Shown: positions 9,562-35,418 of the stretch, one piece after another | How positions within the stretch are numbered: position 1 is the first letter of the stretch | Layout of the letters: each line of letters starts with the position of its first letter | DNA from: Acutalibacteraceae bacterium | Lineage (GTDB): Bacteria > Bacillota > Clostridia > Oscillospirales > Acutalibacteraceae | Assembly (NCBI GenBank): GCA_045576295.1 | Contig: JAZNGF010000035.1 | Span: 58-64,057 of the forward strand | Direction: 5' to 3' | Length of the DNA: 64,000 bases | Notes under the pieces: model-generated | Told to the model about the DNA's origin: nothing | Seen by the model: only the letters and a program-made list of their open reading frames with translations | Database searches by the model: none | Translations under genes and position numbers: made by a program

Positions 9562-9637
9562 GCTGGTGTAGCTCAGTTGGTAGAGCAGCTGATTTGTAAT
9601 CAGCAGGTCGGGGGTTCGAGTCCGTCCACCAGCTCCA
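9562..9637 (+). tRNA. tRNA-Thr (anticodon TGT)
   Basis: Cloverleaf folded by hand: acceptor GCTGGTG/CACCAGC, D arm GCTCAGTTGGTAGAGC, anticodon arm GCTGA-TTTGTAA-TCAGC, T loop TTCGAGT, encoded CCA. Confidence 0.9.
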
Positions 9638-9656: not shown

Positions 9657-9741
9657 GGGAGAGTTCCCGAGTGGCCAAAGGGGGCAGACTGTAAATCTGT
9701 TGCGTTTCGCTTCGATGGTTCGAATCCGTCCTCTCCCACCA
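9657..9741 (+). tRNA. tRNA-Tyr (anticodon GTA), class II with long variable arm
   Basis: Acceptor GGGAGAG/CTCTCCC, anticodon loop CTGTAAA, long variable arm, T loop TTCGAAT, encoded CCA. Confidence 0.9.
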
Positions 9742-18378: not shown

Positions 18379-18632
18379 TTGAACTTTTGCCTTTAAAGTG
18401 GTATACTAACACTGCCAAACAAACTTAATAAACAGAAGCTGGGTATTTCCCCTTTGCGGGGGGTATTATGCTCTTTTTTGGTTATCTTATCGATATGAAT
18501 TTGGTAAAAACGCAAATTCCATCGGTGGGATGATCGGGTTATGATACCCCCATTCTGTTTGAGTTTGTTTGGCGACAATCGGGGTTTGCGTTTTTCGGTG
18601 CGTTCGACTTCGGTTGGCGCACTTTTTTGTTT
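18379..18632 (+). promoter_or_regulatory. Candidate structured 5' leader, copy a (promoter, nested helices, cUUCGg-loop terminator)
   Basis: Promoter: TTGAAC (18379-18384), 17-nt spacer, TGg-TATACT (18402-18407). Helices: GGGGGTATTATG 18459-18470 / TATGATACCCCC 18540-18551; ATCTTATCGAT 18484-18494 / ATCGGTGGGAT 18521-18531; GAATTTG 18497-18503 / CAAATTC 18513-18519. The terminator hairpin at 18597-18622 is followed by T6 at 18623-18628. The 3' module at 18576-18632 is nearly identical to 30564-30620 and 35104-35160. Confidence 0.6.
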
Positions 18633-18646
18633 TATGGGGTGTTTTT

Positions 18647-19102
18647 ATGACCGCAAAAAGACTAATGTTCTTGTTTTTATCCTTAACCATAATTTTATCT
18701 GCCTGCAAATATTCTAATAAAACGATTAGCGAAACCCCTGCCGAAGAGCCTGCATACGAAGTTTTTAAAATAAATATATATGCTGAATGTGTTTCAAACG
18801 ATTCGGTAGGCAATGAATGGGTTCAAGAATACTTTATGGATGGGCAAAGAATTTATAGTGGGCACCAAATAACACTGCCGTTAAATGAGCCACCCGTTTT
18901 TAAAACCATAACCGCAACTATCGAAGAGGTTGACAAGTACCCCGATATATCATCAAAAGATATATCCTTTGAAATAAAAGACGGCAAAGAAAGCCACAAA
19001 ACGGTGGTTGTTACCGAAGGCGATGGATGCCATAAAGGCCGCGAAGCAGTTTGGAATGTAAAGGTATCGGTTGAAAAATTGTTGAATGAAGAATTGCCAT
19101 AA
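18647..19102 (+). CDS. Lipoprotein of unknown function
   Basis: ATG at 18647 behind a GGGGTG RBS. Signal peptide with lipobox: MTAKRLMFLFLSLTIILSAC. The longer track ORF (18569) would read through the terminator hairpin and is unlikely. Confidence 0.7.
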   Translation: MTAKRLMFLFLSLTIILSACKYSNKTISETPAEEPAYEVFKINIYAECVSNDSVGNEWVQEYFMDGQRIYSGHQITLPLNEPPVFKTITATIEEVDKYPDISSKDISFEIKDGKESHKTVVVTEGDGCHKGREAVWNVKVSVEKLLNEELP

Positions 19103-19106
19103 ACTG

Positions 19107-19268
19107 TTGACTTGATATTTTTTATGTGGTATAATGATCGGCGTGAAATGAACAAATAATAATCTTTAAGAACGGTACAGAGATGCCGGCAAGGTTAGCA
19201 ATTTTGCGCAATATGTTTTTGCGCTCGTTTTGGTATGCACAGCCTTGCTTAAAGCAAGGCTTTTTTTG
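19107..19268 (+). promoter_or_regulatory. pyr operon promoter plus PyrR-type binding loop and attenuator terminator
   Basis: Promoter: TTGACT (19107-19112), 17-nt spacer, TGg-TATAAT (19130-19135). The motif CTTTAAGAAC-GGTA-CAGAGA-TGCC-GGCAAGG (19163-19197) matches the PyrR motif (UUUAA...stem-CAGAGA-stem...AAGG), with a compensated stem. The terminator is CAGCCTTGCTT-aa-AGCAAGGCT followed by T7 (19240-19268). Confidence 0.65.
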
Positions 19269-19302
19269 TGCCGTAAACATAGAAAGATAGAAAGGTGCAA
19301 CA

Positions 19303-20562
19303 ATGAAAGCGATTTTTGAAGGCGGAAAGGTTTATATGGGCGGCAAGTTTTCATGTGCCCCCCTTTTTGTTGATGATAAAAAAGTATCTGAGCCGATTTC
19401 AGGCGGCAGTGTTGCTATTTATAATGTTAATAATTCTATTATTGTTCCCGGCTTTACAGATGTTCATGTTCATCTGCGTGAGCCGGGCTTTTCATATAAA
19501 GAAACAATCGAAAGCGGAACGCGCGCAGCCGCTGCCGGCGGCTACACCACGGTTTGCTCTATGCCAAACCTGAACCCCGCACCTGACAGCGCTGAAGCTA
19601 TAAAACAGCAGCTTAATGCAATAAAAAAAGGCGCCGCGATTAGGGTTTACCCCTACGCTTCGATAACCAAAGGGCTGAAAGGTGAGGCTCTTTCAGATAT
19701 GGAAGAACTAGCCCCGCTTTGCATTGCCTTTACGGATGATGGCAAGGGCGTTCAAAAAAATGAAATGATGCTTGAAGCAATGAAAACCGCAAAAGCTTTA
19801 GGCAAAATGATAGTTGCCCACTGTGAAGACGAAAGCCTTTTAATCGGTGGCTGTATACACGACGGCGAGTTTGCCCGCAAAAACGGTTTCCGCGGAATAT
19901 CGAGCGAGAGCGAATGGCGCCAGGTTGAGCGCGACTTAGAGCTTGCTGCCGCCACAGGATGCAAATATCATGTTTGCCACATTTCGACGAAGGAAACGGT
20001 TGGACTTATACGCCAGGCTAAAAAATCAGGCGTTGACGTTACCTGCGAAACAGCGCCACATTACCTGATTCTTTGCGACCAAGACCTTAAAGACGAAGGC
20101 AGATTTAAAATGAACCCGCCCATTAGAAGTGAGGCTGACCGCGAAGCACTTGTTGAAGGACTGATTGACGGAACGATTGATATGATAGCAACCGATCACG
20201 CGCCACATTCGGCCGAAGAAAAGAGTAAAGGGCTTAAAGGCAGTTTAATGGGGGTTTCGGGGCTTGAATGCGCATTTGCGGCGGTTTACACAAACCTTGT
20301 TAAACCGGGTGTTTTACCGCTTGAAAGGCTGATTGATGCTATGAGCATTACCCCGCGCCGCCGATTTGGAATCCCAGGCGGCACCGAAATTGGCGACGAC
20401 GCCGATTTCACGGTTATTAATTTAGATGAATCGTTCACCGTTCGCGGAGAAGATTTTATTTCAAAAGGAAAGTTCACCCCGTTTGAAGGGCGCAAATTTT
20501 ATGGAAAAGTTAAGCTAACAGCAGTGAAAGGAGAAATAGTGTGGCAAGCCACACTACACTAA
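19303..20562 (+). CDS. pyrC: Dihydroorotase
   Basis: A 419-aa ORF with the metal-binding DVHVHLREPG, the AAAGGYTTV motif and an amidohydrolase fold signature. Confidence 0.93.
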   Translation: MKAIFEGGKVYMGGKFSCAPLFVDDKKVSEPISGGSVAIYNVNNSIIVPGFTDVHVHLREPGFSYKETIESGTRAAAAGGYTTVCSMPNLNPAPDSAEAIKQQLNAIKKGAAIRVYPYASITKGLKGEALSDMEELAPLCIAFTDDGKGVQKNEMMLEAMKTAKALGKMIVAHCEDESLLIGGCIHDGEFARKNGFRGISSESEWRQVERDLELAAATGCKYHVCHISTKETVGLIRQAKKSGVDVTCETAPHYLILCDQDLKDEGRFKMNPPIRSEADREALVEGLIDGTIDMIATDHAPHSAEEKSKGLKGSLMGVSGLECAFAAVYTNLVKPGVLPLERLIDAMSITPRRRFGIPGGTEIGDDADFTVINLDESFTVRGEDFISKGKFTPFEGRKFYGKVKLTAVKGEIVWQATLH

Positions 20563-20612
20563 ATTTAAAAGCCGTGCCGTTCCTACCATTGTCGAACCAC
20601 GGCACACGGCGA

Positions 20613-20644
20613 AAATCTCCAACGCGCCGCTAATGGAGATTTTT
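20613..20644 (+). terminator. Possible internal attenuator/terminator between pyrC and carA
   Basis: AAATCTCCA-acgcgccgcta-ATGGAGATTTTT. The stem is short and only four or five U follow, so this is weak. Confidence 0.35.
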
Positions 20645-20689
20645 ATGTGCCACATACATTGATATTTTAGCGGCAGATAGGAGATTAAT

Positions 20690-21787
20690 ATGGCAGACAA
20701 AATAAACAGGAAATTAGTTTTAGAAGACGGCAGCGAATTCTATGGCACAGGCTTTGGTGATATGGGAGAACGCGTTTTTGAAATCGTTTTCAACACCTCT
20801 ATGGCAGGGTATCAAGAAATAGTATCCGACCCATCATACACAGGCCAGGGCCTTGTTATGACCTACCCGCTTATTGGCACATACGGCATAACCGACGACG
20901 ACTTTGAAAGCAAAGATATAACAATAAGCGCGCTTATCGTTAGCGAATATAACGACACTCCTTCAAACTTCCGCTACACCAAAACACTATCGGAAACACT
21001 TGAAGAAAGCCACATCCCCGGCATTCAAGGGTTCGACACAAGGATGTTAGCCAAAAAGATACGCGACAACGGAAGCTGCCGCGCAATTATAACCGATTCG
21101 TTCGTTAAAACAGAAGACGCCCTTGCAAAGATAGCCAAGGCACCCCAAAACAACAACCTTGCCGAAAAGGTTAGCTGCAAAAAGCGCTGGTATTCAAGAA
21201 CACCTAACCACAAGCTTAATGTGGTTGCGGTTGACTGCGGAATTAAACTTAGCTTCATAAAAGCGCTCAACGCTGAGCACTGCAACGTTACAATAGTTCC
21301 CTTTGGCACCACTGCCGAAGAAATTGAACTTATGAAACCCGATGGCGTGTTTATTTCAAACGGCCCCGGAAACCCGAAAGATGCCGCTGCGGTTTGCGAA
21401 CTTATTAAAGGCATTCGCGGTAAATACCCAATCTTCGGCACAGGCCTTGGCCACCAGCTTATAGGGCTTGCCTTCGGCGGCGACACATTTAAACTAAAGC
21501 CCGGCCACCGCGGCAGCACCCACGCTGTTAAAAATGTTATAACCGGCAAGTTTGATAACCCCGCGCAAAACCATGGCTACGCCGTAGATGAAGAATCACT
21601 TAAAGGCACCGGCCTTACAGTTACACACATAAACCTGTTTGATAAAACGGTTGAAGGAATGATGAACGAAGAAGAACGCATTTACAGTGTTCAGTTCCAC
21701 CCCGAAACCGCATCAGGCACAGGAGAAAGCTCACTTTTATTTAACAAATTTATTAAAGCAATGATGGAGGCGAAGAAGAATGCCTAA
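20690..21787 (+). CDS. carA: Carbamoyl-phosphate synthase small (glutaminase) subunit
   Basis: A 365-aa ORF with GATase class I motifs (GHQL variant of the GICLGHQ motif, and HPE near the C-terminus). Confidence 0.95.
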
Positions 21788-24700
21788 GCGCACAGATATT
21801 AAAAAAGTAATGGTAATAGGCTCTGGCCCTATCGTAATCGGCCAGGCAGCAGAATTCGACTATGCGGGAACACAGGCCTGCTTAGCACTTAAAGAGGAAG
21901 GCTATGAGGTTGTTCTTGTTAACTCAAACCCTGCAACAATAATGACCGACAAAGCAATTGCCGACAAGATTTATATGGAGCCGTTAACCCTTGAATATGT
22001 TGCAAAGATTATCCGCCGCGAGCGCCCCGATGCAATTGTTCCCGGCATTGGCGGCCAAACAGGCCTTAACCTTGCAATGCAACTTGAAAAGAAGGGTATT
22101 CTTGAAGAATGCCAGGTTGAACTGCTTGGAACCAGCAGCGACAGCATCGACTGCGCTGAAGACAGAGAACGCTTTAAAAACCTTTGCGAAGATTTAGGTG
22201 AGCCTGTTTTACCTTCAATCACATCGCACTCAATTGAAGAATGCTTTGAAGCCGCAAGAAAGATTGGCTTCCCCGTTGTTTTGCGCCCTGCCTTCACCCT
22301 TGGCGGAACAGGCGGCGGCTTTGCCGAAAACGAAGAAGAACTCTATGAGCTTGCTAAAAACGCACTTCGCCTTTCACCCGTAAGCGAAGTTTTGGTTGAA
22401 AAGAGCATTAAAGGCTATAAAGAAATTGAGTACGAAGTAATGCGCGACGCTAACGACACCGCCATTGCAATATGCAATATGGAAAATATCGACCCTGTTG
22501 GAATTCACACAGGCGACTCGGTTGTTGTTTGCCCTTGCCAAACACTTACCCACAAGGAATGCGCATTCCTTCGCGAGAGCGCACTTAAAATCATCCGCGC
22601 ACTTAAAATCGAGGGTGGCTGCAACGTTCAGTTCGCGCTTGACCCGCAATCGTTCGATTATTTCCTTATTGAGGTTAACCCCCGAGTTTCGCGTTCATCG
22701 GCGCTCGCATCAAAGGCAAGTGGCTACCCCATTGCAAGGGTTACCGCAAAGGTTGCCGTTGGAATGACACTTGATGAAATTATGCTTTCCAACACACCTG
22801 CCGCATTTGAACCAACACTTGACTATGTTGTTACCAAAATGCCCCGCTTCCCCTTTGATAAGTTTGTTGATGCAAACAACAGCCTTTCAACCCAGATGAA
22901 GGCAACAGGCGAAGTTATGGCAATTGGCCGCAGCATTGAAGAAAGCCTTCTTAAAGCCGTTCGCTCGCTTGAAATCGGCGTTTGCCACCTTTATATGAAG
23001 AAGTTCGATTCATACACCGAAGATGAACTTTTACAGTATATCCGCACCGGAACCGACGACCGTTTTTATGCGATTGCAGAGCTTTTCCGCCGCGGAACCG
23101 ACATTGGCCGAGTTTGCGATGCAACACAGATTGATATGTTCTTCCTTGAAAAACTTCGCCACATCACCGAGCTTGAAAACGAAGGTAAACAGAACCCGAT
23201 GGATGCCGAAACACTTAAAAAGCTTAAAAAATACGGTTTTTCTGACAAGTATATAGCCCAGCTTTGGAATGTTAGCGAGCTTGACGTTTGGAACTTCAGA
23301 AGAGAAAGCGGCATAACACCTGTTTACAAAATGATTGACACCTGCGCCGGCGAATTCAAAAGCTACACCCCATACTTCTATTCAACCTATGAAACCGAAA
23401 ACGAGCTTCAAATATCAGATAAGAAAAAAATTATCGTTTTAGGTTCGGGCCCCATCAGAATAGGCCAGGGCGTTGAGTTCGACTATTCAACAGTTCACGC
23501 AGTTATGACCATCAAGCAGATGGGCTGCGAAGCTATAATCATCAATAACAACCCCGAAACCGTATCAACCGACTACACCTGTTCTGATAAATTATATTTC
23601 GAGCCGCTCACTGTAGAAGATGTTATGAACATCATTGAGCTTGAAAAGCCCTATGGCGTTATTGCATCACTTGGCGGACAAACCGCAATTAACCTTGCAG
23701 AACCGCTTATGAACCGCGGCGTTAACATTATTGGCACAGGTGTTGAAGCTATCGACCGCGCCGAAAACCGCGACAGCTTTGAAAAACTTCTAAGCGAACT
23801 CGGAATCCCACAGCCACCCGGCCGCGCCGTTACAACAATTGAAGACGGCGTTAAAGCCGCTGCTGATATTGGCTACCCTGTTCTTGTTCGCCCAAGCTTT
23901 GTTCTTGGCGGACGCGCTATGCAGATTGTTGCAAACGAAGAAATGCTTCGCCACTACCTTAAAACTGCGGTTGAAATCGATGCTGATCGCCCCGTTCTTG
24001 TTGACAGATATATTTCGGGTAAAGAGGTTGAAATCGACGCCGTTTGCGACGGAACCGACGTTTTCGCACCCGGTATTATGGAACTTGTTGAGCGCACTGG
24101 CGTTCACTCGGGCGACTCGATAAGCGTTTATCCAACCTTCAGCATTTCACAAAAGGTTAAAGATACTATTCTTGACTACACCAAGAAATTAGGCCTTGGA
24201 ATTGGCATTGTTGGCCTATTCAACATTCAGTTTATTGTTGATGCAAACGAAGATGTTTACGTAATCGAAGTAAACCCGCGTTCTTCAAGAACCGTTCCAT
24301 TCCTTTCAAAATCAACAGGCTACAACCTTGCCGACATTGGAACACTTGTAATTTTAGGCCATTCACTTAAAGACCAGGGCTTCACAACATCTTACCCCGA
24401 AGAAAAGCCAAGATGGTATGTTAAAACTCCTGCCTTCTCGTTCTCGAAACTTCGCGGGCTTGATGCCTACCTTTCACCCGAAATGAAATCAACAGGTGAA
24501 GCTATAGGTTACGACGACAGCATGACCCGCGCGCTTTACAAATCACTTCGTGCATCGGGTATGAGCGTTGTGAACTACGGCACAGTGCTTGTAACCATCA
24601 ACGATAGCGACAAAGAGGAAGCACTTCCCCTTATTAAGCGTTTTTATGATATGGGCTTTAACATTGAAGCCACAAGCGGCACAGCCCAGTTCTTAAAAGA

Positions 24701-24953
24701 GCACGGCATTCGCACAAGAATTCGCAAGAAGATAAGCGAAGGCAGTGAAGAAATTTTAGATTCTATCCGCCAAGGCTATGTAAGCTATGTTATCAACACG
24801 CGTGATGTTAACTCTTCGGGCGTACTGTCAGACGGGTATGAAATTCGCCGCTGCGCCTGCGAAAACAACATCACCACCTTTACTTCACTCGACACTGTAA
24901 AGGCGCTCTTAGATGTTCTTGAAGAAACAACAATGAAGGTTTCGGAAATTTAG
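21780..24953 (+). CDS. carB: Carbamoyl-phosphate synthase large subunit
   Basis: A 1057-aa ORF with duplicated ATP-grasp halves ([20 protein letters not shown] and [20 protein letters not shown]) and a C-terminal MGS-like domain. It overlaps carA by 8 nt. Confidence 0.97.
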
Positions 24954-24977
24954 TTTTTCGGCTGAATGGAGATTATA

Positions 24978-25718
24978 ATGAAACAAGAATTTTTTACGGT
25001 TGAATCAACAAGATTCCTTGCTAAAAACACCTTTGAAACGGTGCTTGCAGGCAATACCGACGGCATAAGGCCCGGGCAGTTTGTTAACATTATGCTATCT
25101 GGCAAATACCTGCGCCGCCCCATTTCGGTTTGTAATTCTGAGGCAGGAAAGCTCACTATTGTTTACAAAACCGTGGGAGATGGCACCAAGGCTTTAAGCG
25201 AAGTAAAAATCGGCGAAAAGCTCGATTTATTAACACAACTTGGAAATGGATACGATTTAAGTACTAGCGGAGATACCCCCCTGCTTATCGGCGGAGGGGT
25301 TGGCATACCGCCGCTTTATATGCTTTGCAAGGAACTTTTAAAAAAGGGCGTTACACCCAGCGTTATTTTAGGTTTTAATTCTGCCGATGAGGTTTTTTAT
25401 GAAGAAGAATTCTCGGCTCTTGGAGTTCACGTTTACATCGCAACGGCCGACGGCAGCCGTGGAACAAAAGGTTTTGTTACCGATGTTATGAAAAACCTTA
25501 ATTATTCATACTTTTACACCTGTGGGCCAATGCCTATGTTTAGGGCAATAAATGCAGTTGCCACAACCGAAGGGCAGTTAAGCTTTGAAGAGCGAATGGG
25601 CTGCGGCTTTGGCGCATGCATGGGCTGCAGCTGCAAAACACTAACAGGCAATAAGCGCATTTGCCGCGAAGGCCCCGTTATGAAAAGGAGCGAGATAATA
25701 TGGCAGACACAAGAGTAA
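24978..25718 (+). CDS. pyrK: Dihydroorotate dehydrogenase B electron-transfer subunit
   Basis: FAD/NAD-binding fold (RRPISV) and a C-terminal 2Fe-2S cysteine cluster (CGFGACMGCSC...C). ATG 24978 is preferred over 24966 because of the GGAGA RBS. Confidence 0.88.
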   Translation: MKQEFFTVESTRFLAKNTFETVLAGNTDGIRPGQFVNIMLSGKYLRRPISVCNSEAGKLTIVYKTVGDGTKALSEVKIGEKLDLLTQLGNGYDLSTSGDTPLLIGGGVGIPPLYMLCKELLKKGVTPSVILGFNSADEVFYEEEFSALGVHVYIATADGSRGTKGFVTDVMKNLNYSYFYTCGPMPMFRAINAVATTEGQLSFEERMGCGFGACMGCSCKTLTGNKRICREGPVMKRSEIIWQTQE

Positions 25719-26611
25719 CCCTTGGCGGCATCGAACTGCAAAACCCTGTTATCCCCGCGAGCGGAACCTTTGGCTACGGGCGCGAGTTTGTCGAGCTTTA
25801 CGATATTAGCATTTTAGGCTCAATCTCACTTAAGGGAACAACACTTGAGCCGCGCTTTGGCAACCCAACACCCAGAATTGCCGAATGCCCAAACGGAATG
25901 CTTAACAGCGTTGGGCTTCAAAACCCCGGAATTGAAGCGGTTTTACGCGATGAAATTCCAAACCTTAAAAAGATTTACGGAAAACCCGTTGTGCTTAATG
26001 TTGGCGGCTTTAGCGAAGAAGAATTTGCAAAGGTTTGCGCCGCAGCCGACAAGGAAGACAGCATTGGCATAATTGAACTTAACATAAGCTGCCCCAACCT
26101 TCACGCAGGCGGCAAAAACTTCGGCGTTTCGGCCGAGGGCGCAACCCGCGCAACCCGCGCAGCAAAATCGGCAACAAGCAAACCCGTTTTTGTAAAGCTC
26201 ACCCCCAATGTTACCGACATAACCGAAATCGCCGTTGCCTGTGAAGAGGCAGGGGCCGATGGCATCAGCCTTATAAACACACTGCTTGGAATGAGAATTG
26301 ACCTTAAAACCAACAAGCCTGTGCTTTATAACAAAATGGGCGGTTTTTCAGGCCCTGCAATACTTCCTGTTGCACTTCGCATGGTTTACCAGGTTTATGA
26401 AGCGGTTAAAATCCCGATTATCGGCATGGGCGGCGTTTCTACTGCGGCCGATGTTATCGAAATGATGTTAGCAGGCGCCACCGCAGTTCAGGTAGGGGCT
26501 GCAAACCTTGTGAACCCCTTTGCCTGCCGCGATATTATAAACGACCTGCCCCACACTATGGAGCAGTATGGAATAAACAGTTTAACTGAAATTATAGGAG
26601 GAGCACACTAA
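25700..26611 (+). CDS. pyrD: Dihydroorotate dehydrogenase B catalytic subunit
   Basis: ATG at 25700 behind AAGGAG. Class 1 DHODH motifs are present (NPVIPASGTFGYG, NISCPN). Confidence 0.93.
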   Translation: MADTRVTLGGIELQNPVIPASGTFGYGREFVELYDISILGSISLKGTTLEPRFGNPTPRIAECPNGMLNSVGLQNPGIEAVLRDEIPNLKKIYGKPVVLNVGGFSEEEFAKVCAAADKEDSIGIIELNISCPNLHAGGKNFGVSAEGATRATRAAKSATSKPVFVKLTPNVTDITEIAVACEEAGADGISLINTLLGMRIDLKTNKPVLYNKMGGFSGPAILPVALRMVYQVYEAVKIPIIGMGGVSTAADVIEMMLAGATAVQVGAANLVNPFACRDIINDLPHTMEQYGINSLTEIIGGAH

Positions 26612-26612
26612 T

Positions 26613-27311
26613 ATGGGAAAAGACGTTATGATAGCTTGCGACTTTTCGAGCGCAAAAGAAACTATCGAATTTTTAGACAAGTTTACAGGCAGAAAGCCTT
26701 TTGTTAAAATCGGAATGGAGCTTTTTTATGCCGAAGGCCCCGAAATCATTAAACAGATTAAAAGCCGCGGCCACAAAATATTTTTAGATTTAAAACTTCA
26801 CGATATACCGAACACCGTTAAAAAAGCAATGAACGTTTTATCGAAGCTCGATGTTGATATGTGCAACCTTCACGCCGCAGGAACATCGGCTATGATGAAG
26901 GCAGCAATTGAGGGCTTAACAAGAGAAGACGGCACCCGCCCCCTGCTTGTTGCTGTTACACAGCTTACTTCAACCGATGAAGCACGTATGCAAAACGAAC
27001 TTCTTATTAACGAAACAATGGAAAACACCGTTGTGAAATATGCGCAGAACGCAAAAGCATCGGGCCTTGACGGCGTTGTTTGCTCACCGCTTGAAGCAGG
27101 CCTTGTTCACGAAAACTGTGGCAAAGGATTTGTAACCGTAACCCCCGGAATTCGCTTCGCGGGGGACAGCGTTGGCGATCAGTCGCGCATTACAACCCCA
27201 TTAAAGGCAAAAGAAATCGGCTCTGACTATATTGTTGTTGGCCGTTCTATTACCGCAGCAGAAGACCCGGTTGCTGCATACAACCGCTGTGTTGAAGAAT
27301 TTATTGACTAA
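26613..27311 (+). CDS. pyrF: Orotidine-5'-phosphate decarboxylase
   Basis: A 232-aa ORF with the DLKLHDIPNT motif. Confidence 0.94.
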   Translation: MGKDVMIACDFSSAKETIEFLDKFTGRKPFVKIGMELFYAEGPEIIKQIKSRGHKIFLDLKLHDIPNTVKKAMNVLSKLDVDMCNLHAAGTSAMMKAAIEGLTREDGTRPLLVAVTQLTSTDEARMQNELLINETMENTVVKYAQNAKASGLDGVVCSPLEAGLVHENCGKGFVTVTPGIRFAGDSVGDQSRITTPLKAKEIGSDYIVVGRSITAAEDPVAAYNRCVEEFID

Positions 27312-27332
27312 TTAAAACATAAGGAGAAAGTT

Positions 27333-27980
27333 ATGAACGGAAATGTTAAAACACTCATAGCAAAAGACTTACTTTCAATCAAGGCTGTATTTTTAAGCCC
27401 TAACGAACCCTTCACATGGGCAAGCGGCATTAAAAGCCCCATTTACTGCGATAACCGCTTAACACTTACAGCGCCCGAGGTTAGAAACGACATTGAAAAC
27501 GCACTTGCAGAATCGGTGAAGGCTAACTTCCCCGAATGCGAAGTTCTTATGGGAACATCAACTGCAGGTATTGCTCACGCCGCTATCACAGGCCACATTT
27601 TAGGGCTTCCTATGGGCTATGTTCGCGGTTCAAGCAAAGATCACGGCCGCCAGAACAGAATTGAAGGCAGGCTTGAAAAGGGCCAAAAGGTTGTTGTTGT
27701 TGAAGACCTTATTTCAACAGGCGGCAGCGTTATCGACGTTGTTGAAGCGCTTCGCGAAGCAGGCGCCGAGGTTCTTGGCATTGTTAGCATCTTCACCTAT
27801 GGCATGAAAAAAGGACTTGAAAGGCTTGCAGCCGCTAATGTTACAAACTACAGCTTAACCGATTTCGACGAAATCGTTGCAGTTGCCGCCGCTGAAGGCT
27901 ACATTGAAGAAGGCGACACCGCAAGGCTTAAGGCATTCCGCGACAACCCGTCTGACGAGTCGTGGATAGGTGGCAAATAA
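27333..27980 (+). CDS. pyrE: Orotate phosphoribosyltransferase
   Basis: A 215-aa ORF with the PRPP-binding motif [13 protein letters not shown]. Confidence 0.93.
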
Positions 27981-28894
27981 TGAGAAGCCTTATAGACATT
28001 AGGGAGCTTTCGGCTGAAGAGATTAACAGCCTTATAGACTGCGCTAAAGATATTATCGCAAACCCCGAAAAATACAGCGAAAAATGCAAGGGTAAAAAGC
28101 TGGCATCGCTGTTTTTTGAACCGTCAACCAGAACCCGCCTTAGCTTTGAGGCGGCTATGTATGAGCTTGGCGGCAATGTTCTTGGCTTTTCAGAAGCAAT
28201 GAGCAGCTCTGCCGCAAAGGGCGAAAGCGTTGCCGACACGGCTAAAACAGTTAGCTGTTACGCCGATATTATTGCAATGCGCCACCCGAAAGAGGGCGCT
28301 CCGCTTGTGGCTTCGATGAACGCATCAATCCCCGTTATAAACGCGGGCGACGGCGGCCACAACCACCCAACCCAAACCCTTGCCGACCTTTGCACAATAA
28401 GCCTTGAAAAAGGCAGGCTACACGACCTAAAGGTGGGCTTCTGCGGTGACTTAAAGTTTGGCCGCACAGTTCATTCGCTAATTTCGGCCCTTTCAAGGTA
28501 CACAGGAATTAAGGTTTACCTTATTTCGCCCGAAGAACTTAAACTGCCAAGCTATATTAAAAACGGCGTGCTTCAAAAATGCGGCATTGAATACGTTCAA
28601 ACAACCGATTTAGACAGTGTTATCGGCGAGCTTGACATTTTATATATGACAAGGGTTCAGCGCGAACGCTTCTTCAGCGAAGAGGAATATTTGCGCCTTA
28701 AAGACAGTTACATTTTAACCGAAGAAAAACTTTTAGGCGCGAAGGAAGACCTTTGCATTATGCATCCGCTGCCGCGCGTTAACGAAATTTCGGTTGGAAT
28801 TGACAACGATAAAAGGGCTTGCTACTTTAAGCAGGTGCTTTACGGCAAGTATATGAGAATGGCGCTTATTATGATGCTTTTGGGGGTGGAATAA
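27980..28894 (+). CDS. pyrB: Aspartate carbamoyltransferase catalytic subunit
   Basis: The ATG overlaps the pyrE stop (TAATG). Motifs: [24 protein letters not shown]. Confidence 0.94.
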
Positions 28895-29326
28895 TTGAAC
28901 ATTGACTCAATTAAAAACGGCATAGTTATCGACCATATTACTGCAGGCCGCGGAATGGAGATTTACAGGCTTTTGAATTTAGAAGAGCTTGACTGCCCCG
29001 TTGCCATAATCAAAAATGTGTTGAGCGCCAAGGCAGGAAAAAAAGATATTATCAAGATCGACAGTGAGATGCCGATTGATTTTAACCTGTTAGGCTATGT
29101 TGACCCAGGCATCACAGTTAACATTATTAAAGATTCAAAGGTTGCCGAAAAGGTGCACCCAACCCTTCCAACAAGGCTCACAGGGGTTTTAAAATGCAAA
29201 AACCCCCGTTGCATTACCTCAACCGAGCAGGAGCTGCAACAGATTTTCTATCTTGACGACAGCAACAACGCAATTTACCGTTGCCTATACTGCGAATCTA
29301 AAAGCGATAAAATGTTTAATAAATAA
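28895..29326 (+). CDS. pyrI: Aspartate carbamoyltransferase regulatory subunit
   Basis: A 143-aa ORF with a TTG start directly after the pyrB stop. It has the C-terminal zinc motif CKNPRC...CLYC. Confidence 0.88.
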   Translation: MNIDSIKNGIVIDHITAGRGMEIYRLLNLEELDCPVAIIKNVLSAKAGKKDIIKIDSEMPIDFNLLGYVDPGITVNIIKDSKVAEKVHPTLPTRLTGVLKCKNPRCITSTEQELQQIFYLDDSNNAIYRCLYCESKSDKMFNK

Positions 29327-29563: not shown

Positions 29564-30034
29564 ATGACATTACGAGAACTTAGAAAAATCAAAGGGATAA
29601 CACAGCAAGAAGCCGCAGATTATGTAGGGGTGCCATTAAGGACTTACTCTAATTATGAAAACGATCCTCAAAAGCAGTCCAGCATTAAATATAAGTATAT
29701 AATGGAAAAACTATATACCCACGGATATATCGATGAAGAAAACGGGGTGCTGACATTAGAAGAGATCAAAAAGACCTGTGTAAATATTCTTTCCAAATAT
29801 CCTGTTGAATATTGCTATTTGTTTGGGTCATACGCAAAGGGCAACGCAAAACCATCAAGTGATGTGGATTTACTAATCCACACCACTCTTTCAGGATTAA
29901 AGTTCTACGGTTTGGTTGAAGAACTGCGCGAACAGTTGAAGAAAAAGGTTGATGTGCTTGACCAAAAACAAATAATGGGTAACTTTGAACTTACAAATGA
30001 AATACTGAAGGATGGCGTAAAGATTTATGGATAA
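29564..30034 (+). CDS. mntA: MntA-type nucleotidyltransferase antitoxin with fused N-terminal XRE HTH domain
   Basis: The N-terminus is an HTH (LRELRKIKGITQQEAADYVGVPLRTYSNYE). The C-terminus carries the minimal NTase motif (LFGSYAKGNAKPSSDVDLLI). It overlaps the downstream DUF86 gene by 8 nt. Confidence 0.8.
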   Translation: MTLRELRKIKGITQQEAADYVGVPLRTYSNYENDPQKQSSIKYKYIMEKLYTHGYIDEENGVLTLEEIKKTCVNILSKYPVEYCYLFGSYAKGNAKPSSDVDLLIHTTLSGLKFYGLVEELREQLKKKVDVLDQKQIMGNFELTNEILKDGVKIYG

Positions 30035-30362
30035 TATAAAAAATGACGCTTACTATATTAAGAAAATGCTAAAGGACATTAAGTTTATTATAAATAACAC
30101 AAAGGGAATAACACTTGACGAGCTTGAAGCAAACGAGGTGCTGTGCGACTCTGTTCTTTTTCGTTTGATACAAATCTCTGAAAACTCAGTGAAACTTACC
30201 CCTGATTTTAAGGCAAGGCACAACGATATTCCTTGGCAGGCCATCAAGGGTATGAGAAACAAAATTGTTCACGAATACGGCGATGTTGAGTTTGATATTG
30301 TTCATCAAACAGTTACAGAGGATATACCCGAAATTTGTAAGAAGCTTGACAGTCTTGTGTGA
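30027..30362 (+). CDS. hepT: HepT-type (DUF86) RNase toxin
   Basis: A 111-aa ORF with the Rx4HxY motif (RNKIVHEY), paired with the NTase gene. Confidence 0.85.
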   Translation: MDNIKNDAYYIKKMLKDIKFIINNTKGITLDELEANEVLCDSVLFRLIQISENSVKLTPDFKARHNDIPWQAIKGMRNKIVHEYGDVEFDIVHQTVTEDIPEICKKLDSLV

Positions 30363-30419: not shown

Positions 30420-30620
30420 TTGTAAAAGCGTTAAAAGTGTGATAAAATAAACTCACCACACAAATCATTATAGGCGTATTACAAGAGAATGTTTTTTGTT
30501 TCGGCAAAAACACATTCTCCGCTTGTGCATTCCTTGTGATATGCCAAAAGATTTGTGTGGTAACAATCTGGAGCTATGTGTTTTTCGGTGCGTAGCTTCG
30601 GTTGCGCACTTTTTTGTTTT
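30420..30620 (+). promoter_or_regulatory. Candidate structured 5' leader, copy b (promoter, nested helices, cUUCGg-loop terminator)
   Basis: Promoter: TTGTAA (30420-30425), 17-nt spacer, TGtgaTAAAAT (30443-30448). Helices: P1 30456-30466/30550-30560; P2 30473-30484/30534-30545; P3 30485-30498/30505-30519. The terminator hairpin at 30587-30609 is followed by T6 at 30610-30615. Confidence 0.65.
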
Positions 30621-30633
30621 TACGAGGTATTAA

Positions 30634-30867
30634 ATGAAAGACAAGTCAGAGATTTACAAAACATTCGGCAAAAGATTAAAGGCAATAAGAAAAGAACTTA
30701 AAATGACTCAGATTGATTTTTCGAAGCACTTGTCGATAGATAGAAGCCTTTACACAAAGTATGAAACCGGAGCATCTATGCCACCCGGCTATAAGCTATA
30801 TGAAATGGCTAAAAATCTTGGTGTATCAACTGATTTTTTATTAGGGCTTAACGATAATGATAATTAG
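30634..30867 (+). CDS. Small XRE-family HTH regulator (77 aa), paralog of 35176-35418
   Basis: HTH_3 sequence (LKAIRKELKMTQIDFSKHLSIDRSLYTKYETG) and the shared tail DFLLGLNDNDN. A GAGG RBS precedes it. Confidence 0.85.
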   Translation: MKDKSEIYKTFGKRLKAIRKELKMTQIDFSKHLSIDRSLYTKYETGASMPPGYKLYEMAKNLGVSTDFLLGLNDNDN

Positions 30868-30883
30868 TGTTTTACATAAAATG

Positions 30884-30907
30884 CGGTGCCACACGGCACC
30901 GTTTTTT
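30884..30907 (+). terminator. Intrinsic terminator after the XRE gene
   Basis: CGGTGCC-acac-GGCACCG followed by T6. Confidence 0.8.
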
Positions 30908-30968: not shown

Positions 30969-30997
30969 TTGACATATAATTTTTAGGGTGTTAAAAT
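30969..30997 (+). promoter_or_regulatory. Putative promoter of the ABC exporter pair
   Basis: TTGACA (30969-30974), a 17-nt spacer, TAAAAT (30992-30997). Confidence 0.55.
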
Positions 30998-31055: not shown

Positions 31056-32795
31056 ATGATTTTAAAATTACTAAAATGTGTGCGAGAATACAAAAAAACC
31101 TCGATACTCACGCCGATTTTGGTTACAGGCGAGGTTATTCTTGAATGCTTAATACCGTTTATTATTGCAAAGCTGGTTTCGGCAATTCAGGCCGGTGCAA
31201 CGGTTGGCGAAATTGCTAAATACGGCGGTGTTTTAACCGTTATGGCGGCGTTATCACTCATATTCGGTGCGGTTGCAGGTTCAACTGCCGCAACAGCTTC
31301 TTGCGGTTTTGCAAAGAATATACGAAAAGATCTATTTTATAAAATTCAAGACTTTTCGTTTGCGAATATCGACAGGTTTTCAACCTCATCGCTGGTTACA
31401 AGGCTCACAACCGACATAACCAATGTTCAAATGTCGTATATGATGATTATCAGAACCGCGGTTAGAGGCCCGCTTATGATAATTTTCTCGTTTGTTATGG
31501 CGGCCGTTATGGGCGGAAAGCTCGCGTTCATTTTTGCCTGTCTTTTACCTGTTTTGGCGTTCTTCTTCCTTTTTATCATCAAAAAGGTTATGCCTATATT
31601 TAAGCGAGCCTTTAAAAAATACGATAACCTCAACCGCGAAATTCAAGAAAACGTTCGCGGAATAAGGGTTGTTAAATCATTTGTTAGAGAAGACTACGAA
31701 AAGAAAAAATTCAACACCGCATCTGACGGGGTTAGAGAAGACTTCACAGTGGCTGATAAAATTATGGTGCTTTCAAACCCGCTTTTGCAGCTCTGCCTTT
31801 ATATTAATATGATAGCCATTATGTTCTTTGGCTCTAAAATCATAATTTCGGGCGGCGCGCTTAACGTTGGCCAGCTTTCGGCACTTATCACCTACGGCTT
31901 CCAGATTTTAATGAGCCTTATGATGATTTCGATGGTTTTTGTTATGATAACAATTTCAGGCGAATCGGCCGCGCGTATTGTTGAGGTGCTGGGCGAAAAA
32001 TCAACAATCACAAACCCCGAAAACCCCGAAATGCAGGTTAAAAACGGCAGCATTGACTTTAACGGTGTTTCGTTTAAATATTCCGAAAAGGCCAAAGAAA
32101 TGGCGCTTTCAAGCATCGAGCTTCACATTAAATCGGGCGAAACCATTGGAATTATTGGCGGAACAGGGTCGGGCAAAAGCTCGCTTATACAGTTAATACC
32201 CCGCCTTTACGATGCAACCGAGGGCTCAGTTATGGTTGGCGGACGTGATGTTAGAAAGTACGACATTGAATCGCTTCGAAATGCGGTTTCGGTTGTTTTG
32301 CAGAAAAACGAGCTCTTTTCGGGAACAATTAAAGAAAACCTTCGCTGGGGCAACCCCGACGCGAGCGATGAAGAGCTGATTGAAGCCTGCAAAATGGCGG
32401 CGGCACACGAGTTTGTGTCATCCTTCCCCGATGGATACGACACATTCATTGAGCAGGGCGGCGCCAATGTTTCGGGCGGGCAGAAACAGCGCCTTTGCAT
32501 TGCAAGGGCATTGCTTAAAAAGCCTAAGATTTTAATTTTAGATGATTCCACAAGCGCGGTTGACACCAAAACCGATGCAATGATTCGCGCCGCGTTTGAA
32601 AAATATATTCCCGAAACCACAAAGCTTATCATCGCTCAACGCATTTCTTCAGTTGAAAAGGCCGACCGCATTGTGGTTATGGACGACGGCAAGATAAACG
32701 ACGTTGGCACCCACGAAGAGCTGCTAAAGCGCAATGAAATCTACAAAGATGTTTACGAATCTCAAAACAAGGCAGGTGTTAGCGATGAGAGGTAG
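31056..32795 (+). CDS. ABC exporter half-transporter (TMD-NBD), degenerate-site subunit
   Basis: Six-helix TMD, Walker A GGTGSGKSS, signature VSGGQKQR, and Walker B ILILDD followed by S instead of the catalytic E. Confidence 0.9.
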   Translation: MILKLLKCVREYKKTSILTPILVTGEVILECLIPFIIAKLVSAIQAGATVGEIAKYGGVLTVMAALSLIFGAVAGSTAATASCGFAKNIRKDLFYKIQDFSFANIDRFSTSSLVTRLTTDITNVQMSYMMIIRTAVRGPLMIIFSFVMAAVMGGKLAFIFACLLPVLAFFFLFIIKKVMPIFKRAFKKYDNLNREIQENVRGIRVVKSFVREDYEKKKFNTASDGVREDFTVADKIMVLSNPLLQLCLYINMIAIMFFGSKIIISGGALNVGQLSALITYGFQILMSLMMISMVFVMITISGESAARIVEVLGEKSTITNPENPEMQVKNGSIDFNGVSFKYSEKAKEMALSSIELHIKSGETIGIIGGTGSGKSSLIQLIPRLYDATEGSVMVGGRDVRKYDIESLRNAVSVVLQKNELFSGTIKENLRWGNPDASDEELIEACKMAAAHEFVSSFPDGYDTFIEQGGANVSGGQKQRLCIARALLKKPKILILDDSTSAVDTKTDAMIRAAFEKYIPETTKLIIAQRISSVEKADRIVVMDDGKINDVGTHEELLKRNEIYKDVYESQNKAGVSDER

Positions 32796-34719
32796 ACCGA
32801 ATATGAAGCAAATGCCCAAAGGCGGGCCGCGACCTGCACCAAAAAAAGGCGTGTTCGGCAGGCTTATTAAAGAGTTGTTCCGCGCCTACCCCGTAGCGCT
32901 GCCTATTGTTATTGTTGCAATTTTAGTAAACGCTATTGTTTCATCAATTCCTGCAGTGTTTATGCAAAACATTTACAAGCTTATCGAAGAGTCACTTAAA
33001 GATTCAACCCCTTGGGCAAAAGCCTCAGGCGAAATTATCAAATTCGTTATTATGCTGGCGACTCTTTACCTTATTTCTATCATTTTAGGCTTTTTATATA
33101 ACCGAATGATGGCAACCATCACCCAAGGCTTTTTGCACAAAATGCGCCTTAAAATGTTTGGCGTTATGCAAGGGCTTCCTGTTAAGTTTTTCGATTCTAA
33201 CAATAATGGCGATATTATGAGTTATTACACCAACGACGTTGACACTATGCGCCAGTTGGTATCACAAAGCCTGCCGCACATTTTAACATCGGTTACAACC
33301 GTTTTAACCGTTGCCTTTTTAATGCTTTACTATAGCGTTTGGCTATTCCTTGTTGTATGCGTTGGCGTTGTTGCAATGCTTATGGTTACTTCAAAGGTGG
33401 GCGGAAATTCCTCGAAATACTTTATCGGCCAGCAACGTTCGGTTGCAGGCACCGAAGGCTATGTTGAAGAAATGATGAACGGCCAAAAGGTTGTTAAGGT
33501 TTTCTGCCACGAAAAGGAAAGCCGCGAAGGATTCGACAAGCTTAACGACGAGCTGTTTGAAAACTCACGAAAAGCCCATAAATACGCAAACATTTTAATG
33601 CCCATTCTTGGAAATATAGGCAACATTCTTTATGTTATTGTTGCGCTCGTTGGCGGAACACTTTTGGTTTTAAATGTTCCGAATGTTTCAATTTCGGGGC
33701 TTGCTTTAGGCATAAACATTGTGGTTCCCTTCCTTAATATGACCAAGCAGTTTTCGGGCAATATTGGGCAGGTTTCATCGCAAATCAACTCAATCATAAT
33801 GGGCCTTGCAGGTGCATCGCGCGTGTTTGAGCTTATTGATGAAAAGCCCGAGGTAGACAACGGCTATGTAACACTTGTTAATGTTCGCGAAGAAAACGGC
33901 AAACTTACCGAATGCAAAGAAAAAACAGGAATGTGGGCTTGGAAACACCCCCACTCGGCCGACGGCTCGGTTACCTATACAAAGCTTTTGGGCGATGTTA
34001 GAATGAACGAGGTTGATTTTGGCTATGTTCCCGAAAAAATCGTGCTTAAAAATGTTTCGCTTTATGCTAAGCCCGGGCAAAAGGTTGCCTTTGTTGGCGC
34101 AACAGGCGCCGGCAAAACAACCATAACCAACCTTATTAACAGGTTTTACGACATTGCCGACGGTAAGATTAGGTATGACGGCATTAACATTAACAAAATC
34201 AAAAAGGCCGACCTTCGCCGTTCGCTTGGCATTGTTCTGCAAGATATTAACCTTTTCACCGGAACGGTTATGGATAACATCCGCTACGGCAAGCTTGACG
34301 CAACTGATGAAGAATGCATTGCCGCCGCACGCCTTGCCGGGGCCGACAGTTTTATTAGGCGCCTGCCCGATGGCTATAACACGCAGCTTTCGGCCAGCAG
34401 TGCCAACCTTTCGCAAGGCCAGCGCCAGCTTATTGCCATAGCGCGCGCCGCCGTTAACGACCCACCCGTTATGATTATGGACGAGGCAACATCTTCAATC
34501 GATACCAGAACCGAGGCTATAGTTCAGCGCGGAATGGACGCTTTAATGAAGGGCAGAACCGTTTTTGTTATTGCGCACCGCCTTTCAACCATTAAAAATT
34601 CCGATGTTATTATGATGCTTGATCACGGCGAGATAATCGAGCGCGGAAGCCACGATGAGCTTATGGCCAAAAAGGGCAAATACTACGAGCTTTACACCGG
34701 CGCATTCGAGCTTGATTGA
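32785..34719 (+). CDS. ABC exporter half-transporter (TMD-NBD), consensus-site subunit
   Basis: Walker A GATGAGKTT, non-canonical signature LSQGQRQ, and Walker B VMIMDEATS with the catalytic E. The start is ATG 32785 (overlapping) or 32803. Confidence 0.9.
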   Translation: MRGRPNMKQMPKGGPRPAPKKGVFGRLIKELFRAYPVALPIVIVAILVNAIVSSIPAVFMQNIYKLIEESLKDSTPWAKASGEIIKFVIMLATLYLISIILGFLYNRMMATITQGFLHKMRLKMFGVMQGLPVKFFDSNNNGDIMSYYTNDVDTMRQLVSQSLPHILTSVTTVLTVAFLMLYYSVWLFLVVCVGVVAMLMVTSKVGGNSSKYFIGQQRSVAGTEGYVEEMMNGQKVVKVFCHEKESREGFDKLNDELFENSRKAHKYANILMPILGNIGNILYVIVALVGGTLLVLNVPNVSISGLALGINIVVPFLNMTKQFSGNIGQVSSQINSIIMGLAGASRVFELIDEKPEVDNGYVTLVNVREENGKLTECKEKTGMWAWKHPHSADGSVTYTKLLGDVRMNEVDFGYVPEKIVLKNVSLYAKPGQKVAFVGATGAGKTTITNLINRFYDIADGKIRYDGININKIKKADLRRSLGIVLQDINLFTGTVMDNIRYGKLDATDEECIAAARLAGADSFIRRLPDGYNTQLSASSANLSQGQRQLIAIARAAVNDPPVMIMDEATSSIDTRTEAIVQRGMDALMKGRTVFVIAHRLSTIKNSDVIMMLDHGEIIERGSHDELMAKKGKYYELYTGAFELD

Positions 34720-34958: not shown

Positions 34959-35160
34959 TTGTAAAGTGATGAAAAATGTGGTAAACTAATCTTGCGACGT
35001 AACTTCATTTGAATATTACCCAGTCGAGAGGTGCATTTTACTAAGGTAAAAATGCATACTCTTTTTCGTGCATTCTTGATTGGGTGCTGAAGTTGCGTCG
35101 CAGCAATTGGAGTTATGCGTTTTTCGGTGCGCTTAACTTCGGTTGGCGCACTTTTTTGTT
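34959..35160 (+). promoter_or_regulatory. Candidate structured 5' leader, copy c (promoter, nested helices, cUUCGg-loop terminator)
   Basis: Promoter: TTGTAA (34959-34964), 17-nt spacer, TAAACT (34982-34987). Helices: P1 34993-35007/35088-35102; P2 35018-35028/35075-35085; P3 about 35033-35041/35046-35055. The terminator hairpin at 35126-35151 is followed by T6 at 35152-35157. Confidence 0.65.
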
Positions 35161-35175
35161 TAAGAGGTTATTTTG

Positions 35176-35418
35176 ATGTTGGAATATGAAGAAATGCACA
35201 AAAACTTTTGCACAAATTTAAAGGATATGCGCAAGCAAATGCAAATGACACAAGAAGATTTTGCAAGGTTTATTGGCATTGGGCGCACATTATATACTAA
35301 ATATGAAACGTGTGCGGCAACACCCACATTTATAAAACTGCTCAAAATAATATCTGCTTTAAATGTATCAGCAGATTTTTTGTTCGGAATAAAAGCCAAC
35401 GATAATATAGATAAATAA
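35176..35418 (+). CDS. Small XRE-family HTH regulator (80 aa), paralog of 30634-30867
   Basis: ATG at 35176 behind an AGAGG RBS. HTH sequence LKDMRKQMQMTQEDFARFIGIGRTLYTKYET and tail DFLFGIKANDN. Confidence 0.85.
   Translation: MLEYEEMHKNFCTNLKDMRKQMQMTQEDFARFIGIGRTLYTKYETCAATPTFIKLLKIISALNVSADFLFGIKANDNIDK

Follow-up and report, generated by a model that had tools for sequence, protein, structure and literature searches.

Leaders ahead of accessory genes in gut Clostridia form an uncatalogued family of probable three-state transcription attenuators

We analyzed a 64,000-nt stretch of DNA (hereafter, the window) from an Acutalibacteraceae bacterium (NCBI GenBank assembly GCA_045576295.1, contig JAZNGF010000035.1, positions 58 to 64,057 of the forward strand), focusing on a structured 5' leader at 30420-30633 that lies between a promoter and a 77-aa XRE-family gene. 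This leader (copy b) is accompanied in the window by copies a and c. In our assessment, it is likely a cis-acting three-state attenuator and a member of a widespread, uncatalogued family. Segments 2, 3, and 4 of the leader are shared among three mutually exclusive pairings, and the helices P1, P2, P3, anti-antiterminator (AAT), antiterminator (AT), and terminator covary across ~100 homologues. An earlier note, made from the sequence alone, had proposed the architecture of a riboswitch or protein-dependent attenuator, and the covarying terminator/antiterminator pair supports this. The general arrangement of an attenuator is found here: a Rho-independent terminator lies between the promoter and the ribosome-binding site (RBS), a mutually exclusive antiterminator shares a strand with it, and both covary.

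Mutually exclusive pairings in copy b

All features of copy b lie on the + strand. A consensus scan listed the promoter at 30420-30448, consisting of a -35 hexamer TTGTAA (30420-30425), a 17-nt spacer, and a TG-extended -10 hexamer TAAAAT (30443-30448), just as the earlier note had read it. Downstream, that note had drawn three nested helices, and RNAfold reproduced all of them at the same positions in its minimum free energy (MFE) fold. P1, proposed as CCACACAAATC with GATTTGTGTGG, pairs CCACACAAAUC (30456-30466), at or adjacent to the predicted 5' end of the transcript, with a covarying 3' arm, GAUUUGUGUGG (30550-30560). P2 pairs 30473-30484 with 30534-30545, a 3' arm also assessed with the cognate-energy test described below. 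P3 is formed by segment 1 (GAGAAUGUUUUUUG, 30485-30498), which mimics the sequence of segment 3, and segment 2 (CAAAAACACAUUCUC, 30505-30519), which is also the 5' strand of a long-range AAT with 30571-30585. The duplex energy of this AAT was -17.6 kcal/mol.

Segment 3 (CAAUCUGGAGCUAUGUGUUUUU, 30564-30585) had been noted as a conserved linker. The conserved stretch is present, but it is more than a linker, as it supplies both the 5' arm of a 16-bp antiterminator (30564-30580) and the 3' strand of the ~15-bp AAT (30571-30585). The antiterminator 3' arm is segment 4 (UGCGUAGCUUCGGUUG, 30589-30604), and the loop between the two arms (UUUUUCGG, 30581-30588) is the same in all three window copies. 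Because segment 4 runs from the terminator 5' arm through the loop to the fourth base of the 3' arm, its pairing with segment 3 is an antiterminator. The intrinsic terminator itself spans 30587-30615, with a stem of GGUGCGUAGC and GUUGCGCAC(U), a UUCG loop, and U6 at 30610-30615; the scan listed it at 30587-30610 with 10 pairs. The hairpin GGTGCGTAGC-TTCG-GTTGCGCAC (30587-30609) and its T6, as first described, are therefore in the sequence, and so is the 8-nt distance from the end of the T-run to the GAGG RBS (30624-30627) of the XRE gene. That gene (30634-30867, ATG at 30634) encodes a 77-aa helix-turn-helix (HTH) protein matching Pfam HTH_19 (1.2e-13) and HTH_3 (3.8e-12) and a PHROG transcriptional regulator (1.8e-18).

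The MFE of copy b was -64.6 kcal/mol (z = -7.3), which none of 200 shuffles equaled. Its fold lacks the terminator and instead pairs the supposed linker (30564-30580) with 30589-30604, forming the antiterminator; likewise, the MFE folds of all three window copies hold the antiterminator and not the terminator. The AAT complementarity is also present in each copy, as AUGUGUUUUU with AAAAACACAU in copy b, UUGCGUUUUU with AAAAACGCAA in copy a, and AUGCGUUUUU with AAAAAUGCAU in copy c, and these strands differ by compensatory changes. Start-to-stop open reading frames (ORFs) in the copy b leader reach only 21-45 aa, chiefly with TTG or GTG starts, and we saw no RBS ahead of them on reading the sequence, in agreement with the view that the leader holds no credible ORF.

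Covariation, distribution, and the genes behind the leader

Homologues were gathered by exact match to a 21-nt pattern in the 3' domain (TTTTTCGGTGCG-N8-30-CGCACTTTT), with ~5 diverged copies added by model. In contigs from one genome per species, this pattern occurred at 120 loci or more, and all listed matches were in Clostridia. The listed hosts included Oscillospiraceae, Acutalibacteraceae, Ruminococcus, Ruminiclostridium, Faecousia, Dysosmobacter, Christensenellaceae, Ornithomonoglobus, Hominilimicola, and others; the listed genomes were mainly metagenome-assembled genomes (MAGs) from human, ruminant, and rabbit guts, along with two isolate-like records without a MAG label. Viral contigs held at least 120 further loci, mostly in one group of related human-gut phages. 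By contrast to these numbers, GenBank phages gave only two weak pattern matches. The pattern was not found on plasmids, so a plasmid association was rejected. Homologues are thus abundant outside this genome, in well over a hundred species of gut Clostridia and in phages of these bacteria, with covariation well above controls.

The family falls into two size classes, at ~125 and ~178 nt from P1 to the U5 run, and three sequence classes. Motifs that remain unpaired and are conserved across the classes are AAUA after P1, UUUGGUAAAA, and UUUUUCGG, while P2 and the inserts are free to differ in both sequence and length. Diverged copies outside the search pattern keep the same design through compensatory changes (e.g., GGUGCA...UGCAC), and the antiterminator loop in diverged homologues reads UUUUUCAG, UUUUUGG, or UUUUUCGU.

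Across 98 elements, the mean folding z-score was -8.15, the sense strand was more stable than the antisense strand in every case (98/98; -70.6 vs. -54.2 kcal/mol), and G-U pairs made up 13.8% of all pairs. Together, these results indicate that the structure has been selected in the + strand RNA.

Covariation was visible directly in P1, where, among 44 sequences, column 8/148 held GC 22 times, CG 16 times, UA five times, and AU once. Because the leader interior has no common alignment register, we assessed the helices with a cognate-energy test, which set the duplex energy of a segment and its cognate partner against the energies of the same segment with partners from other elements, over 2000 permutations. 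Cognate pairs were far more stable than non-cognate pairs in P1 (-19.7 vs. -8.5 kcal/mol) and in P2 (-17.2 vs. -7.0 kcal/mol), where the cognate partner had a median rank of 0 of 97. The same was found for P3, that is, segment 1 with segment 2 (-10.4 vs. -6.6 kcal/mol), for the antiterminator (-16.3 vs. -11.7 kcal/mol), and for the AAT (-17.1 vs. -11.8 kcal/mol). None of the 2000 permutations did as well for any of these helices, and the effect persisted within each of the three sequence classes. Control pairings showed little or no effect, with 1262 of 2000 permutations as good for segment 1 with segment 3, and 46 of 2000, at a difference of 0.3 kcal/mol, for segment 2 with segment 4.

Pair counts on alignments agreed with this picture, although the alignments combine classes that sit in slightly different registers, which lowers the percentages paired. 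In the terminator, 99.5% of cells across 88 sequences were paired, compared to at most 70% when the strands were slid, with 75 double-change cells in the upper stem. The antiterminator was paired in 79.8% of cells (at most 47% slid) with 49 double-change cells, and the AAT in 85.2% (at most 66% slid) with 43 double-change cells vs. 12.7 in shuffled controls. For each of the three, 0 of 500 shuffles were as good. RNAalifold on a MAFFT alignment of the short class recovered only P1 and the terminator, because the interior is variable and the three sequence classes do not share one register.

The promoter appears to travel with the leader. Among the 117 elements with enough upstream sequence, a -10-like box (TANNNT) precedes P1 in 100, with 3-10 nt (typically 5-7 nt) between the end of the box and the P1 5' arm, and a recognizable -35 hexamer accompanies the majority of these boxes. 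Promoter-like matches form a single fixed-distance peak per size class. Given this near-constant distance before P1, we consider the promoter part of the module.

On the downstream side, the distance from the end of the leader to the RBS of a gene is 10-40 nt for most copies. Of 127 elements, 111 are followed on the same strand, at no more than 150 nt, by a start codon preceded by an RBS-like purine motif, and in 91 of those 111, the start is at most 60 nt away and opens an ORF of at least 45 aa. The 91 downstream proteins fall into 51 different Pfam families, led by LRR_5 (7), Zn-ribbon (5), XRE HTH (4), and AbrB/MazE (3), with many lacking a family, and we found no shared pathway or transport theme among them. 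They include lipoproteins, BspA-type leucine-rich-repeat and other surface proteins, Zn-ribbon membrane proteins, small regulators of the XRE and AbrB/MazE types, AMP-binding enzymes, and phage accessory genes. This heterogeneity argues against a metabolite-specific riboswitch and for a global cue, which could be physical or could come through a second messenger or a protein factor.

The gene that recurs most often after the leader encodes a small Cys-rich protein of 55-70 aa (...ITGIELTPGEPxVCLGNGExGFECCCDECDYFLLCFPEFD), present at ~10 of 111 genome loci and behind several leader classes, e.g., L009:2826-3008 (-), L083:1366-1569 (+), and L086:730-903 (+). It had no Pfam or NCBIfam match and may belong to the core of the genes under leader control. 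In the phages, the element sits within the early region, ahead of a gene for a PASTA-domain membrane protein, a DUF4839 lipoprotein, or a 352-aa protein without known function, and these look like accessory ("moron"-like) genes. In IMG/VR contigs (L121-L240), for example at L123:5100-5925, the element lies between the anti-repressor and exonuclease genes, and the DUF4839 lipoprotein corresponds to phrog_29396.

The earlier note had also held that the leader is not a known riboswitch or leader, and we found no relevant match in Rfam 15 (4227 models, including described riboswitches, T-box, PyrR, leaders, and small RNAs [sRNAs]) in the window at gathering score or in copies a and b at E <= 10. 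At the latter threshold, the two copies gave only chance matches of 11-23 bits vs. gathering scores of 40-112, and in 18 homologous loci searched at gathering score, no family overlapped the element. A limited search of the literature on riboswitch candidates, attenuators, Clostridia, and structured microbiome RNAs found no description of the family, though large unnamed candidate lists could hold it.

Possible switching mechanism and competing explanations

In the mechanism that we propose, a near-consensus sigma-70 promoter would start the RNA directly at P1. P1 and the sequence-variable P2 would enclose P3, with segment 3 following directly after P1. In the ON state, the antiterminator (segment 3 with segment 4) would bury parts of the terminator and allow read-through into the gene. 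In the OFF state, segment 3 would pair back with segment 2 in the ~15-bp AAT, displacing segment 1, and segment 4, now free, would join segment 5 in the UUCG-loop terminator immediately ahead of the RBS.

The two states appear close in energy by these calculations. Mean energies were -16.1 kcal/mol for the antiterminator, -14.6 for the terminator, -12.5 for the P3 region, and -17.1 for the AAT, so that P3 plus antiterminator (ON) sums to -28.6 kcal/mol vs. -31.7 for AAT plus terminator (OFF), a difference of ~3 (standard deviation 5.8) with the AAT computed as a free duplex. In the predicted 5'-domain fold, 86 of 98 elements leave at least four bases unpaired in the stretch of segment 2 complementary to segment 3, and these bases would form a toehold for strand invasion. 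Segment 2 would already be made as segment 3 emerges, and segment 4 would come later, so the toehold could let the AAT form first. As the AAT can form first, we take termination as the default, a choice we hold at close to even. The gene would then be turned ON by a trans-acting effector: by holding or masking P3/segment 2, a region with the conserved UUUGGUAAAA motif, such an effector would let the antiterminator form. The opposite polarity may also apply, with ON as the default and an effector that promotes the AAT.

As for the effector, a dedicated RNA-binding protein or other global factor is our first, if tentative, candidate. A small molecule or second messenger seems a good deal less probable, an effector-free switch sensing temperature or elongation rate slightly less so again, and a trans RNA improbable.

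Several points weigh against the attenuator reading or this version of it. Promoter activity, termination, and read-through of the leader are all predicted from sequence, and the nested MFE calculation predicts the ON fold for copies a, b, and c. The AAT crosses P1 and P2 and is therefore a pseudoknot; the calculation treated it as a free duplex, which leaves both its real energetic cost and the default state uncertain. No sequence-conserved binding pocket was visible in the leader family, and Pfam, PHROGs, and NCBIfam searches of the recurrent downstream proteins yielded no candidate effector. The conservation of the 3' domain is inflated, since the homologues were collected by an exact pattern in that domain, and the mixed registers of the pair-count alignments are a further weakness. 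Finally, ~13% of copies have no ORF within 150 nt, and such copies, together with the tandem copies at locus L081 described below, would also fit a free-standing RNA.

The alternative that survives best, although we consider it unlikely, is a small-molecule or second-messenger riboswitch, in which P1-P2-P3 and the long-range pairing would form an aptamer and a ligand would fix P3 or the pseudoknot, thereby selecting terminator or antiterminator. The anti-antiterminator/antiterminator/terminator logic is the classic one for such expression platforms, and the conserved unpaired AAUA, UUUGGUAAAA, and UUUUUCGG could belong to an aptamer. Moreover, many copies per genome stand ahead of surface/adhesin-type genes, a layout resembling that of the c-di-GMP riboswitches in Clostridioides. 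However, most of the structured domain is variable in sequence and length, with two size classes and no conservation of P2, and a 15-bp helix of -17 kcal/mol should form without any need of a ligand. The downstream genes also lack a common metabolic theme, and no Rfam riboswitch matched even at E <= 10. Given the heterogeneous gene set, a strict riboswitch that binds a small molecule is not the most likely form of the switch.

The small mean difference between the ON and OFF sums, with its large spread, could instead point to an effector-free kinetic or physical sensor, whose fold balance would be set by temperature, by RNA polymerase speed or pausing (e.g., at the U5 run before CGG), by nucleoside triphosphate pools, or by NusA/NusG. 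U-runs at the ends of segments 1 and 3 and the toehold and strand-displacement design would suit such a sensor, and the heterogeneous accessory gene set would suit a global physiological cue. Still, UUUGGUAAAA and UUUUUCGG are more conserved than energetics alone would demand, partly through ascertainment, and we rate this explanation somewhat below the riboswitch.

It is improbable, in our view, that the copies are independent genes for trans-acting sRNAs, each with a promoter, an RNA of 160-230 nt, and a terminator, from which read-through is incidental. A covarying antiterminator that exactly overlaps the terminator would be purposeless in a plain sRNA gene, potential seed sequences vary among copies, and the close downstream start codons on the same strand (within 150 nt in 111 of 127 elements, of which 91 have the start no more than 60 nt away, opening an ORF of 45 aa or more) are better explained by a leader. 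Every copy does have its own promoter and strong terminator, the ~13% of copies without a nearby ORF suit this idea, and a U-rich stretch just 5' of the terminator hairpin, along with the U-tail, resembles an Hfq-binding module. Support also comes from locus L081:6600-7550 (-; Ruminococcus sp. MAG JAMPDR010000014), where 5-6 copies ~215 nt apart stand head to tail, each with a promoter and terminator. Two sequence types alternate in this array, no ORF separates the copies, and one ORF of 109 aa comes after them; the locus may hold either stacked attenuators or a series of sRNA genes.

A DNA-level element is very improbable, either as an invertible promoter-proximal switch with the P1 arms as recombinase inverted repeats, as in C. 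difficile cwpV, or as a repeat resembling a miniature inverted-repeat transposable element. The P1 arms do form 10-20-bp inverted repeats with a conserved ACAA/TTGT core, and the 100-165 bp that they enclose lie between promoter and gene. Surface proteins and lipoproteins, the types encoded downstream, are often phase-variable, and the cassette is dispersed and occurs on phages. Yet among 100 assembled elements, the interior was forward in 90 and inverted in none, and helices outside the repeats (antiterminator, terminator, and AAT) covary too. The reliance on G-U pairs (13.8%) and the better folding of the sense strand (98/98) are strand-specific and therefore indicate action at the RNA level. 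With no inverted interiors in the assembled elements and a strand-specific structure, an inverton was rejected.

Attenuation by an antisense RNA of the pT181 or pIP501 type, in which a countertranscript binds the nascent leader and forces the terminator, is the least probable of these: its preemptor/terminator logic is alike and long hairpins would suit loop-loop kissing, but the competitor of the antiterminator lies in cis (segment 2) and covaries, there are no plasmid matches, and opposite-strand promoter-like sites show no positional conservation within the element, whereas the sense promoter forms a sharp peak. We rejected it for want of that positional peak. Attenuation through a leader peptide and ribosome sensing is likewise unlikely, as there is no conserved ORF or RBS within the leader, and the AUG/UUG that follows GGAG in segment 3 is too near that motif and missing in one class.

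Setting in the window and comparison with known systems

The earlier note had pointed to a recurrence of the last ~57 nt of copy b, which we confirmed: 50/60 and 51/60 positions (83-85%) are identical to 18576-18632 and 35104-35160. The upstream hairpin domains of the three copies share a mere 47-60% identity. A covariance model of the 3' domain found exactly three copies in the 64-kb window (E <= 1.6e-12, with the next match at E = 0.24; these E-values are rough), and a 39-nt pattern had 0 chance matches expected. All three copies have a chromosomal context. Outside the window, the leader at L076:1639-1804 (uncultured Ruminococcus sp. SRP315200_co1_209; also L069:200-262) is near-identical to copy b, with the same P1 and P2 sequences.

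Copy a (18379-18628, +; z = -8.8) belongs to the long class and has an extra hairpin. Its promoter is at 18379-18407, and P1 pairs 18413-18428 with 18559-18574. The P3 hairpin (18497-18519) has the loop GUAAAAACG, segment 2 lies at 18506-18520, segment 3 at 18576-18595, and the terminator at 18598-18622, followed by U6 (18623-18628). The controlled gene is a 151-aa lipoprotein-like ORF (18647-19102), which is itself 5' of the pyr operon. At 19107-19270 (+) lie a strong promoter (TTGACT-17-TATAAT) belonging to that operon itself (19303-29326) and its leader, with a terminator-like hairpin at 19241-19261 followed by T7. This hairpin is presumably a pyr attenuator, although the Rfam PyrR model at gathering score had no match in the pyr leader. 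As the operon has its own promoter and leader hairpin, we rejected copy a as its regulator.

Copy c (34959-35157, +; z = -7.6) is of the short class, with a TTGTAA-17-TAAACT promoter at 34959-34987 and P1 pairing 34992-35007 with 35088-35103. Segment 2 (35048-35062), segment 3 (35104-35124), the terminator (35127-35151), and U6 (35152-35157) follow, and the controlled gene is a second XRE gene of 80 aa (35176-35418), adjoining aroA and uvrB.

Copy b stands between a toxin-antitoxin pair and a set of exporter genes. Immediately 5' of it, at 29564-30362 (+), a gene for an MNT-like HTH-nucleotidyltransferase of 156 aa shares 8 nt with a gene for a 111-aa HepT-like RNase. Beyond the XRE gene are a terminator (30883-30902) and then a near-consensus TTGACA-17-TAAAAT promoter with 11/12 matches (30969-30997, +), which precedes two ATP-binding cassette (ABC) exporter genes (31056-34719). 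Because of this terminator and separate promoter, the exporter genes are probably not co-transcribed with the leader-controlled XRE gene; they may be a regulatory target of the XRE protein. Elsewhere in the window, Rfam gave only three matches: the ribosomal protein L10 leader RF00557 at 960-1105 (-; 86.8 bits) and tRNAs at 9562-9634 (+) and 9657-9738 (+).

Oscillospirales and Christensenellales are dominant and poorly studied gut bacteria whose gene regulation is little known. With one recognizable cassette ahead of many of their genes for surface proteins, lipoproteins, small regulators, and prophage accessory functions, a large co-regulated set would be readable from genome sequence, and the cassette would offer a handle for finding the factor or signal that controls this set. 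We speculate that the family could be the RNA arm of an undescribed global regulatory system in gut Clostridia, as a new riboswitch class for a second-messenger, host, or phage signal or as the target of a dedicated RNA-binding antitermination factor. In each genome, such a system would control, in a coordinated way, dozens of accessory genes for surface proteins, lipoproteins, and regulators, and temperate phages would have taken it over to time accessory genes of their own, but we consider this broad picture rather unlikely as a whole. The cassette also offers a natural example of a three-state switch with a decoy strand, a toehold, and a long-range AAT, with rich covariation of all alternative helices. 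It could improve the annotation of metagenomes, where many more unannotated copies presumably exist, and could serve as a portable regulatory part for engineering gut Clostridia carriers.

Among known systems, the PyrR-controlled pyr leaders of Bacillus (and, more loosely, the TRAP trp leader) are similar in having three mutually exclusive helices 5' of an RBS. Both have a stable antiterminator that shares sequence with the terminator, along with a third helix that takes up the antiterminator 5' arm so that the terminator can form, and both occur in several copies per genome. Unlike the pyr leaders, the new family lacks the PyrR binding-loop consensus and any Rfam PyrR match. Its AAT is a ~15-bp long-range helix that crosses P1 and P2 and displaces a decoy strand (segment 1), whereas the pyr counterpart is a local hairpin. 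The genes behind it are unrelated to pyrimidines, and the pyr operon in the window has a promoter and leader of its own. The T-box model (RF00230) matched no element, while a true T-box was detected elsewhere, at L042:1670-1881.

The platforms of transcriptional OFF riboswitches, in which the aptamer P1 acts as anti-antiterminator, resemble the leader in that a structured 5' domain shares its 3' strand with the antiterminator. As in these and in pseudoknot riboswitches (ZTP, fluoride, preQ1, and c-di-GMP-II), the terminator stands directly before the RBS and a long-range or pseudoknot pairing would decide the outcome. By contrast, no sequence-conserved aptamer core is evident in the leader, whose multi-helix domain varies in sequence, unlike a classical conserved aptamer. 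The leader also controls heterogeneous genes, the helix that would decide the outcome greatly exceeds ligand-dependent pseudoknots in length and stability, and the promoter lies at a fixed distance as part of the conserved module.

Countertranscript attenuation of the plasmid rep genes of pT181, pIP501, and pAMbeta1 involves a similar choice between preemptor and terminator, set by a complementary RNA on an upstream segment. Here, however, the complementary RNA is in cis, no antisense promoter was found, and the loci are chromosomal and phage-borne rather than plasmid replication genes. The cwpV-type switch of Clostridioides difficile likewise lies between a promoter and a surface-protein gene, has inverted-repeat flanks, and uses an intrinsic terminator in the leader as its OFF device, but no inversion was seen in the 100 elements here, and the structure has been selected at the RNA level.

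Overall, these are probably transcription attenuators or riboswitch-like leaders of an uncatalogued family, and they show none of the hallmarks of PyrR leaders, T-boxes, or the families in Rfam. The family is set apart by its long-range, pseudoknotted AAT with a decoy strand, its promoter coupled at a fixed distance, the heterogeneity of the genes behind it, and its presence on phages.

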